Source of the DNA: Octopus vulgaris
Lineage: Eukaryota
Direction: 5' to 3'
NCBI GenBank assembly: GCA_951406725.2
Contig: OX597816.1
Location: forward strand, 106,206,001-106,270,000
Length of the DNA stretch: 64,000 nucleotides
The notes beneath the pieces are model-generated. The model saw only the letters and a list, made by a program, of their open reading frames with translations, was not told where the DNA came from and searched no databases. Positions 51,703 through 55,172 of this stretch are shown here, one piece after another. The stretch's first letter is position 1; each line of letters begins with the position of its first letter. The translations under genes were made by a program, and so were the position numbers.

Positions 51703-53944
51703 TTAAATTATACCAGGTAGTGGGACCCTGGTTCAAGACTTCCAAGGTTTTGAGGAGTGTAGAGCTGCCTCTTACCCACTAGTCTTCCAAGGTCTACTCT
51801 AATCCACAGCTGCAATCCTGACAGATGCTACTACTCTGGGGTTAATTAGCATGCTATGGAAGAAACTCTCACTGCCTTGTGAATGTCTTGGGAAAGGAAA
51901 AGGCTAAGAGAATCAACCGTCACAGCAAATCAAAGATGGAGTCTCTCAGGCAATTCAATCCATCTTTGACACCCTTTCAGCAACTTCAAGGTAGGTGGAG
52001 CTCTCCATCCCTGTAAGGCAGTTCACCTTTGAGAAGGCCACTTCAGTGTAAAACCTACAATTTGTTGGTCACTGCAGTTGTCTTAAGCCACTGAACCACT
52101 GAGTTCAGACCCTTAAATCTAAAGAGTAGGATCGGATTGCACACACTGATTTTTACTTTAAAATGCAGGCAGGAAGAAAAGCTCTGCAGCATCAGAAGGT
52201 GTGGCACTCTGCCTCATTATAAGGGTGTGCCACTGTACCTCATGTTTTCAGGCACAAAGAAACTTCCATCATAATGTCCTCTGTTCTTTAAAGTTGGCTT
52301 GTCTTGTGCCTTCTCTACTCAGACACCTCTGACCTACTCATCTCTCTATTTCTCATCATTTTTGTTACATCCAAGAAGGTCATGGACTATTACATCTTTT
52401 CCTTATTCTTTATGTAATGCCCCACCCCCACCCTCACCCTAGGAGTGACTAGACTGGGCACTGCTACTGGTTTACGATATATATGTTTGTAGCTGTGTAA
52501 ACAACATTTCCATATCTGTTCTATCTAGACACATCCTTTGTAAAACCTGTCCATTTTGACATTTTCAATATCTTTTTATAACTATAATCAAAAGTCTTAC
52601 AAAACTCACTTATTTGTTTTCCTTAATTGCTTTTTGAACCCCCTTTTGGTTTCCCTCTTCTGCAGTTCAGTGTAGACCCAACACTCTTTTTTCCCTTTCA
52701 CCTCAATTAAGCCACTGCTTGACATTACTGTGATATGCATTGCATTTTCTTTGTCATCAGCCCTCAAAAGCAACTGACGGGGTTTGTGCGTGCATGAACA
52801 AACTGACACATTTGGAGACTTTTAGTAGTGCATTCAACCTACAGTGATACTTAAGGCACGTTTTAACCACCCTGCACAAAATGGTGATGGTGATGCAATT
52901 GTTGTTTAACACCAGGTCAGCCCTATTTGTGTAAGCCTTTGATCAAAAATATTTCAGCCATTGATAACTTTTTTCTTTTTTTCTTTTTTTACAAGAATAC
53001 AATGCACCTGACATGCAAATGTGCTCTGCTAGAAATATCAGCTAAATCCACCTCTAATGACATTGTATTAAATTTAAAAGCAAAAAAATAGAGAAGGGTG
53101 TGTTGGTTAATGTAACTCCAGGTAAAAAATGTGATGGCCATGACTAGAATTGACATTAGGATAAATAACAATAGCAGCTAGCAATTAGAGCAAACAGAGG
53201 GGCTTCTCTGTGTGGCTGCTCAATTGGCTGGAAATAGCAGCCAAATCTCCTTCAAGTTACACCCTTACAGTTGTGTTAAATAGTGGTGGTGTAAAATAGG
53301 AATTGGGATAATAGACAGGCTTTAAAAAATTGCCTGGAGTAAAAGGAAGTGGCAAGAAAATTATATCTAGAAACTATGTAGAAAAGTAAATGACAGGTTT
53401 GCACTGCCAGTGGGGAAGAAGTGGTTGGGAAATAGGAAATAGGTGGACAGAGTTGTGAAATATTGTCAGAAAAAGAAAAGTAAAAATATAAACAAGGAAA
53501 GCCAAGATGTCACTGGGGAGAAGTATATCTAGAGTGACATTGTGGGAATATTTGAATGCAGGCAGGCCAATGTTCAGTGGTGAAGTTGTTTTTCTTTGAG
53601 AGGTAAATAGACTGTTAGACATTGTTTAGTGTGACCCTGTGGGAGTAAGTATGGATTGGGTTGGGGAAACACTGGGATGGGTGTAGCAAATAGGCTATAA
53701 TAGAGGAAAGAAGAGGAGGCCAGTGATTGCATCAGAGAAATGGCCATTGTAGTAATAGTGGTGGTGTTGGTGGTGGTAGTGGTAATGTTGTCATCATTCA
53801 TCATCATCACGTGTTTTGAAAGTATTATATTTCTGAAAATCTTGCTGTAACATGAAACATTTCCCATTCACTTCCATGCTCATTGATTTCCATGTAAAAT
53901 AGAAGTCAATGATGGTGTGTTTATAGTCTTTAAAAATCTTATAC

Positions 53945-55172
53945 CGGGCAAAATGCTTAATGGTATTTCACCCGTCGCTACATTCAGAGTTTGAATACCG
54001 CCTTTCACCCTTTCAGGGTTGACAAATTTAGTACCAGCTACATACTGGGGTCACTATAATCAACTAGCCCTCCTCTCCACACAATTTCAAGCATTGTGCC
54101 TATAGTAGAAAGTATCATTACTATTATTATTATTAATTCCGCTGACGTTGACTTTGTCTTTCTGGGTCAATAAAATAAGTACCAGTTGTGTATGGGGTCA
54201 ATGTAATCAACTATCCCCCTACACCAAAACTTCAGACCTTGTGCCTATAGTAGAAAGGATTATTATTGTCGTTGTTATTATTAAGGCAGTGAGCTGGCAG
54301 AATCATTAGTATGCCAGACAAAATGCTTAGCAACATTTTGTCTGTCTTTACATTCTGAGTTCAAATTCCGCCGAGGTCGACTTTGCCTTTCATCTTTGCA
54401 GGGTTGATAAAATAAGTACCAATTGAGTACTGGGGTCAATATAATCAACTTACTCCCTGCCCTCAAAATTGCTGGCCTTGTGCCAAAATTTGAAGCCATT
54501 TTTAATATTAAGGTGGCATTATTTACATTTGATGGATATTTGTCCTCATCTTGTTTGTTGTTAACACAACGTTTTGGCTGATATACTCTCCAGCCTTCAT
54601 CAGATGTCTTGGGGAAATTTTGAACCTGGGTTGTCATTCCTAAAGTATTTTTCAATGTTGTTATTATTATTATTCAGGTCACTACTTGGAATCAAACTCG
54701 GAATCTTGGGGTTAGTAGCCCACGGGCATGTGGCGTAGTGGTTAAGAGCACGGGCTACTAACCCCAAGATCCCGAGTTTGATTCCAAGCAGTGACCTGAA
54801 TAATAATAATAATAATAATAATAACAACAACATTGAAAAATACCTTAAGAATAAGAACCCAGGTGGCATTTCTTGCAGCTTTATGTTCTGAGTTTAAATT
54901 CTGCCAAGTTTTACTTTGCCTTTCCTTTTTTTTTGAGATCAATAAAATAATGTACCAGTTACTGAGGTTGATGTAATGACCAGCTCCCACTCTAGTAAAA
55001 AAGATTCTTATTATTATTATTTGTCCGTTCTCACTGAGTTCAAATTCTGTCAAGGTCAACTTTGCCTTTCATCCTTTTGGTGTCAATGAAAAAAGTACAA
55101 GTTATGTACTGGGGTTGATATAATAGACTAGCTCCTGTCCCAAAATTTCAGGCCTTGTCCTTATAGTAGAAA
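53945..55172 (+). repeat. Second head-to-tail cluster of about 5 copies of the ~200-bp SINE, interrupted at 54521-54860
   Basis: Same unit as 40340-41668. Confidence 0.85.
54521..54860. mobile_element. tRNA-Arg-like SINE with hammerhead-like tail, inserted as an inverted duplication
   Basis: AGGTGGCATT at 54511-54520 and 54861-54870; tRNA-like head 54724-54796(+); inverted arms 54624-54724 and 54749-54864; minus-strand CTGATGA..stem..AAAAC GTT at 54563-54608. Confidence 0.78.

Follow-up and report, generated by a model that had tools for sequence, protein, structure and literature searches.

A Penelope-like element family of Octopus vulgaris with a tRNA-type head in its terminal repeat, and a possible role for RNA polymerase III

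The 64,000-nucleotide stretch of Octopus vulgaris DNA analysed here (the window; contig OX597816.1, positions 106,206,001 to 106,270,000 of the forward strand, lying on contig C3 of the 2.8-Gb genome that we searched) carries at 54511..54870 an insertion that a first-pass annotation had described as a short interspersed nuclear element (SINE) with a tRNA-Arg-like head and a Penelope-type hammerhead ribozyme, inserted as an inverted duplication. We find that the insertion is, almost certainly, a back-to-back pair of pieces of the pseudo-long terminal repeat (pLTR) of an abundant, autonomous Penelope-like element (PLE) family. The hammerhead, the inversion and the tail are known Penelope features, and both the element class and the ribozyme are ordinary; the unusual part is the tRNA-type head with which the pLTR opens. 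Taking the evidence as a whole, we lean towards the explanation that this head is a tRNA-type promoter from which RNA polymerase III (Pol III) would have read the unit, and that its cDNA would be primed from both strands of the target.

The element family and the insertion

Positions in the pLTR are counted from the first G of the head, position 0, at window position 54724. A first look genome-wide gave 5217 candidates, and a 34-nt hammerhead core had 3353 exact genome matches against none for its reversed control, so the sequence of the insert is not due to chance; from the rate of exact matching (10/56), the arms in the genome are estimated at roughly 19,000. Endonuclease-like coding sequence stood directly upstream of the head in 1 of the first 30 loci, and a peptide from it gave 3950 genome candidates. 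The stop-codon anchor and the tail lay no more than 500 nt apart in 19/30 fetched loci, with head, (TAA)n and hammerhead between them, and in 21/30 the tail continued directly into the open reading frame (ORF), the pLTR being a partial tandem. The unit (2,652 nt, as the majority of 40 long segments) has a single ORF of 835 aa with reverse transcriptase (RT) and GIY-YIG domains, whose ATG lies at +115, between head and ribozyme, whose frame passes through the hammerhead, and whose stop falls 29 nt before the next head.

Natural family copies match the profile RVT_1, and an Anolis PLE protein shows 37% identity over 565 aa, endonuclease region included; the Pfam GIY-YIG profile gave no score on the copies examined. 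In a FastTree tree of 33 proteins, made without curated clade references, the family falls in an unnamed group beside the group that holds the Anolis proteins. Genome searches with two distant PLE proteins led to the same family (30/30 fetched loci for the first; largely the same places among those listed for the second), and a scan of metagenome and viral contigs with the RT piece found no relatives there. The family thus has an ORF with RT and C-terminal GIY-YIG, an ORF start inside the pLTR and inverted 5′-truncated copies, as endonuclease-bearing (EN+) PLEs do. With the head coming after the GIY-YIG stop, the tail passing on into the ORF and both arms of the window insertion lying on the pLTR map, the insert is therefore two pLTR pieces. 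The earlier suggestion of mobilisation by Penelope machinery, and the comparison of the tail with autonomous Penelope elements that had been proposed for checking it, are borne out, as the same head, hammerhead and tail occur in the pLTR of an autonomous element with RT and GIY-YIG.

The proposal of a separate Pol III SINE was not supported. That an independent tRNA-derived SINE had borrowed a Penelope hammerhead and tail is very improbable: the short copies are SINE-like in anatomy, and 7/40 head-anchored loci end in the (TAA)n tract, but the autonomous element has the same head in the same place, as part of its own pLTR (29 nt behind the stop and 115 nt before the ATG), which largely refutes the idea, and no second body type is common to the head-anchored loci. 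The expected linkage of head and ribozyme was found in 28/40 of these loci, with the hammerhead downstream of the head; apart from the 7 loci just mentioned, 4 continue part-way into the pLTR and 1 breaks inside the head. A head with A and B boxes fits SINE2 elements, whereas its presence in the autonomous partner does not. The numerous short copies do act as a population of SINEs would, and that part of the SINE reading may yet hold. The octopus SINEs OR1 and OR2, one or other of which is listed as a CORE-SINE (PMC4758252, PMC4824008; here and below, published sources are cited from the portions available to us), were considered by description only. The class of non-LTR (long terminal repeat) retrozymes was also considered and does not fit, the copies being single or inverted and their sequence part of a coding unit, not tandem non-coding monomers. 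At two head-anchored loci, L237 and L242, the (TAA)n tract is followed by sequence resembling the coding region of a different retroelement.

The word AGGTGGCATT stands at 54511-54520 and again at 54861-54870, enclosing 340 bp, and the parts of the insertion are as follows.

54511..54520, plus strand: left target-site duplication, 10 bp, of which the final 4 nt are shared with the 3′ end of the left arm
54861..54870, plus strand: right target-site duplication, of which the first 4 nt are shared with the end of the right arm
54517..54724, minus strand: left arm, pLTR +25 to +235, ending at the short 3′ end class
54718..54864, plus strand: right arm, pLTR −6 to +128, beginning at the family 5′ wall (described below) and stopping short of the hammerhead
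54718..54724, no strand: inversion junction, where the right arm's 5′ end and the reversed left arm have a short word in common
54724..54797, plus strand: tRNA-derived head, with A box at 54731-54741 and B box at 54774-54785
54799..54832, plus strand: (TAA)n/(CAA)n tract from head to start codon, its length varying from copy to copy
54563..54608, minus strand: minimal type I hammerhead, with stem I 54608-54604/54567-54563, core 54603-54597 and stem II 54595-54591/54580-54576; G12 is changed to A at 54575
between 54568 and 54567, minus strand: predicted hammerhead cut, after GUU, by established hammerhead numbering
54517..54637, minus strand: first 40 codons of the ORF, with ATG at 54637-54635; the frame crosses the hammerhead

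The anatomy first described, that is, the 10-bp repeat around its insert, the tRNA-like head with (TAA)n in the right part and an inverted left arm running into a minus-strand hammerhead, is all present. The left arm repeats about 100 nt of the right arm inverted before it enters the hammerhead, which has the CTGATGA core, a 5-bp stem II, AAAA replacing GAAA, and AACGTT. The change from GAAA to AAAA is decay of CpG type, and the B box has one change of that type also (GTTTGA for GTTCGA). To judge by its sequence the window copy, with G12 turned to A and a damaged B box, is dead, in keeping with the inactivity already suspected. On the insert ARAGORN called no tRNA, and Rfam gave neither a hammerhead nor a tRNA match. 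The junction word of the two arms, GCCCAC, recurs as the junction word at L005, L006 and L013. A search for the empty site, in which four contig sets were compared with the window, was swamped by repeat matches. Contigs of four organism labels (runs X16, X17, X18 and X20) cover both family arms, which indicates that the family predates their split or is shared among them.

Inverted insertions and the hammerhead

The frequency of inversion, which the first-pass annotation had proposed to measure, is high: head-to-head inverted insertions make up 59 of 88 sampled loci (the first listed core matches, all on contig C1, with two duplicates dropped). In 42/59 a long 3′ end near +268 is paired with a short one at +225 to +254, while long/long pairs number 0, short/short pairs 4 and pairs with an odd end 13. 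Direct repeats of at least 8 nt flank 27/46 complete inverted pairs, against 3.75% of shuffled pairs. The long/short pairing inside a target duplication suggests priming from both nicked strands, which these sequence patterns make probable, and the 4-nt match of each window arm end to the target duplication is what priming from nicked strands predicts. One RNA or two may have served as template for the arms of a pair: the +63 marker agrees between arms in 38/47 pairs (25.6 expected), and changes common to both arms number 61, where the null gives a mean of 36. The anole PLE makes nicks in both strands and extends them, its RT starting at two internal positions that delimit the tail (PMC11167929), while the rotifer PLE paper proposes instead self-priming on an antisense template (PMC3846280). 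By title or abstract, we found no PLE-structure paper on twin priming or inversion in Penelope pLTRs.

The hammerhead was surveyed in copies not selected on it. GAAA, whose restoration in the family had been expected, is the family state (71/98 copies; AAAA in 15/98), the core is CTGATGA in 52 copies and CTGAAGA in 22, and in stems I and II 93% of cells are paired. The family thus has the CUGANGA and GAAA core, the NUH site and stems I and II of a minimal type I hammerhead, and the window copy departs from it at G12. The sole frequent non-CpG variant of the core, T to A at +153 (window 54599, minus strand; 40/292 arms), falls on N7, a position tolerated by the ribozyme. The close relatives P0001-P0009 are 57-75% identical to the family; in one of them, P0008, at 57%, the N-terminal peptide (residues 18-32) aligns to the hammerhead-encoded one, and its codons would fit a changed but paired stem II.

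A further mark lies at the predicted cut. Short deletions from +181/+182 that remove the GUU triplet occur in 58/307 arms, against 11 for the next site; no variant is linked to them (in 125 tests the smallest p was 0.025), they are found with either state of the +63 marker, and they are discordant between arms in 14 of the 15 pairs that carry them. Crossing of cut RNA by RT through a GU match would give exactly this deletion product, and so recurrent deletion at the scissile bond, read from genomic copies, suggests cleavage in vivo; DNA slippage at the scissile word is a rival source of the same deletions.

The tRNA-type head and polymerase III

In the family majority the A box and the B box of the head are intact, while no tRNA cloverleaf fold was found for it. 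Among the Arg, Ala, Thr, Cys and Lys tRNA genes retrieved, the head is nearest tRNA-Arg (TCT, TCG), with 52 identical positions between genomic tRNA-Arg(TCT) and the 76-nt head; the likeness to tRNA-Arg first noticed thus holds as the best of five isotypes in a sample that did not include Arg-ACG.

Insertions end abruptly just in front of this head. Of those reaching +8, 41/57 stop within −17..+8, where 4.7 would be expected, and 7/11 non-inverted insertions stop in the same interval. At base level 24/99 arm ends fall at −7/−6 and none between −12 and −23, while 18 read through. Genome counts agree in direction, with 3604 matches inside the head and 806 just upstream (match rates 11/40 and 21/40), or, after a rough correction for these rates, some 13,000 copies of the head against some 1,500 of the sequence just upstream. 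Position −6 of the family is a purine that stands 13 nt ahead of the A box, the place at which Pol III would start. At L143:1432-1890, a 5′ piece of the ORF ending at about +410 is followed by an A-rich tract fused directly to position −6, and an RNA joint (1645 to 1232, run X22) likewise fuses an A-rich tract directly to −6; the L143-type joint looks, from its sequence, as if RT had jumped from the 5′ end of one RNA to the A-tailed 3′ end of another.

Downstream of the head, the sense strand of the whole unit has no TTTT, against 2.9 expected by synonymous shuffling (p 0.029), and its Phe codons favour TTC (TTT in 6/20, p 0.03). Four other RT families in the genome show no such depletion, having 1.7-5.3 T runs per kb (among the 10 of 30 frames listed), a second PLE family of equal T content has 8-9 TTTT runs in 2.34 kb and a third has 8 in 1.7 kb; no A and B box pair was found in 12 loci of other PLE families. 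A young second PLE family, about 29% identical to the one studied, was seen at G000:C16:20835300-20840600 (L348) and at L349-L351, with many intact 781-aa frames that are 95-99% alike; it has a repeat-rich 3′ region and showed no A/B box or simple hammerhead match by the patterns used.

We suggest that Pol III would start at about −6 and, with no terminator in its way, pass through the head, (UAA)n, AUG, hammerhead and ORF. The RT-endonuclease would then nick both target strands about 10 bp apart, and each nicked 3′ end would prime cDNA inside the RNA, usually one at +268 and the other near +240; in the window copy, priming would have been at +235 and +128, through 4-nt matches. The cDNA would run off the 5′ end of the RNA, and joining of the two cDNAs at their far ends by short homology would yield the inverted duplication. 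Some of the RNAs were probably cleaved by the hammerhead, and RT may at times have crossed the cut at a cost of 3 or 5 nt. The boldest part of this proposal, that the whole protein-coding unit, with its 2.5-kb ORF purged of terminators, was transcribed by Pol III from a captured tRNA promoter, is an even call.

Alternatively, Pol III transcripts may have been limited to short pLTR RNAs, arising from solo copies and mobilised by the element's protein in SINE-like fashion, the ORF RNA coming from Pol II or from host read-through. We regard this as unlikely, although head copies are about 8-9 times those reaching upstream, most insertions hold the pLTR only, and terminal repeats bearing tRNA or 5S sequence are known only in non-autonomous elements, according to the portions available of PMC10886601. 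The absence of TTTT spans the 2.5-kb ORF, no terminator follows the tail, and internal initiation by RT on full-length RNA would yield the same short copies (PMC11167929), all of which tell against short transcripts.

Other points weigh against the Pol III reading. The interval −7..+4 is occupied by a short palindrome, and some 25-30 nt upstream of the wall there is a TATA-like word; rotifer pLTRs without tRNA heads also begin with palindromes and with TATA/Inr (initiator)-like motifs (PMC3846280), and the wall may therefore be something other than a Pol III start. Together with several junctions that are fold-backs, these observations favour the idea that a SINE or tRNA fragment was trapped in the pLTR and sits there passively as the head, with palindrome fold-back or a Pol II start giving rise to the 5′ wall. 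We think this distinctly less probable again than short transcripts, as the family majority has both boxes intact though the cloverleaf does not fold, non-inverted copies also start at the wall, A-rich tracts are joined straight to −6 in L143 and in the RNA joint, and TTTT is absent.

The case for Pol III is further weakened in that the TTTT test concerns a single family with a modest p, GGGG is also absent from the unit (p 0.29), two short control ORF pieces of other PLEs are likewise without TTTT, and few TTTT runs are expected in the first place, Phe being scarce throughout the clade. In three RNA runs of a related species label, coverage was equal on the two strands and tracked the genomic copy profile, with no piles of starts or ends, so that nothing in them shows present-day transcription; outside CpG the copies have diverged by about 4%, and the family is perhaps extinct. 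Nor does the proposal explain how an uncapped Pol III RNA would be translated. As to priming and the ribozyme, the 88 loci were all taken from a single contig by exact match to a 34-nt word, and the stem covariation that had been proposed as a check is missing, no pair in 37 distinct copies being altered on both sides; this is a weak test, because copies decaying from one source would show none. In the anole the hammerhead is dispensable for insertion in vitro, and no RNA ends were found at its cut site (PMC11167929).

Related systems and neighbouring repeats

The nearest known systems are PLEs of the Penelope/Poseidon type, PAc of the anole (PMC11167929) and Pen2/Pen2a of Adineta (PMC3846280). 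Like the octopus family they have a single ORF, some 835 aa long, for RT plus a C-terminal GIY-YIG, partial tandems, inverted pLTRs, target duplications of 8-13 bp, an optional tail of 25-35 nt and an ORF start overlapping the hammerhead; inverted copies and tails are established for PLEs (PMC8557442). The difference lies in the promoter: in the portions available, the pLTRs of PAc and Pen2/Pen2a have Pol II-type motifs or no promoter type described, whereas in the octopus family a head with A and B boxes opens the pLTR and TTTT is absent. The minimal type I hammerheads of PLE pLTRs (PMC4209133, PMC6765202) share the short stem I, the extra base before stem II and a palindromic stem III that would need a dimer, with no difference in fold; a recurrent scissile-bond deletion was not found described in the parts available of these two papers.

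Among other elements, the schistosome Sm-alpha SINE-like repeats (PMC6765202) also have a Pol III promoter followed by a hammerhead, but these are non-coding tandem repeats without an ORF, while the octopus head and hammerhead belong to an autonomous PLE. Cassandra, Helenus and Ajax, the TRIMp3 elements (TRIM, terminal-repeat retrotransposon in miniature; PMC10886601), similarly carry a Pol III promoter derived from a small RNA inside the terminal repeat; unlike the octopus family they are LTR-type, non-autonomous and under 1.3 kb, and it is argued in that paper that autonomous partners have to rely on Pol II. Animal non-LTR retrozymes (PMC7229834; bioRxiv 10.64898/2026.07.22.740005) are short hammerhead units related to PLE pLTRs, but form tandem arrays with no tRNA head reported, in contrast to the dispersed inverted pairs of octopus; the portions available of the preprint mention neither tRNA, polymerase III nor promoter, and those of PMC7229834 do not mention polymerase III. 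In octopus, a repeat annotation lists 30 recently active Penelope families without detail of head or promoter (PMC13282606), and its supplements may hold the family studied here.

In the sources to hand, Pol III promoters in mobile elements were described only for elements that encode no protein, namely SINEs and TRIMs (PMC10886601, PMC6765202), and a PLE with a tRNA-type promoter was not found in the titles and abstracts of the open literature, subscription papers, Repbase, Dfam and SINEBase being outside that search. If an autonomous RT element was indeed read by Pol III, it would need cap-independent translation of its 835-aa protein and would blur the divide between LINEs (long interspersed nuclear elements) and SINEs, and its thousands of short inverted copies would record two-strand priming at the pair of RT start sites and RT jumps across hammerhead-cut RNA. 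A defined RNA start together with two cDNA starts makes the formation of inverted pLTRs and hammerhead cutting in vivo testable in one family. Such pLTR copies are also easily mislabelled as SINEs.

The surroundings of the insertion are themselves repetitive. The flank to its right is a fragment of a different host repeat, and the insertion lies amid decayed copies of another host repeat, very abundant and tRNA-like at its start, which cluster at window positions 53930-54500 and 54865-55170. Elsewhere in the window, at about 1200-1280 on the minus strand, the translation resembles a LINE RT catalytic motif.
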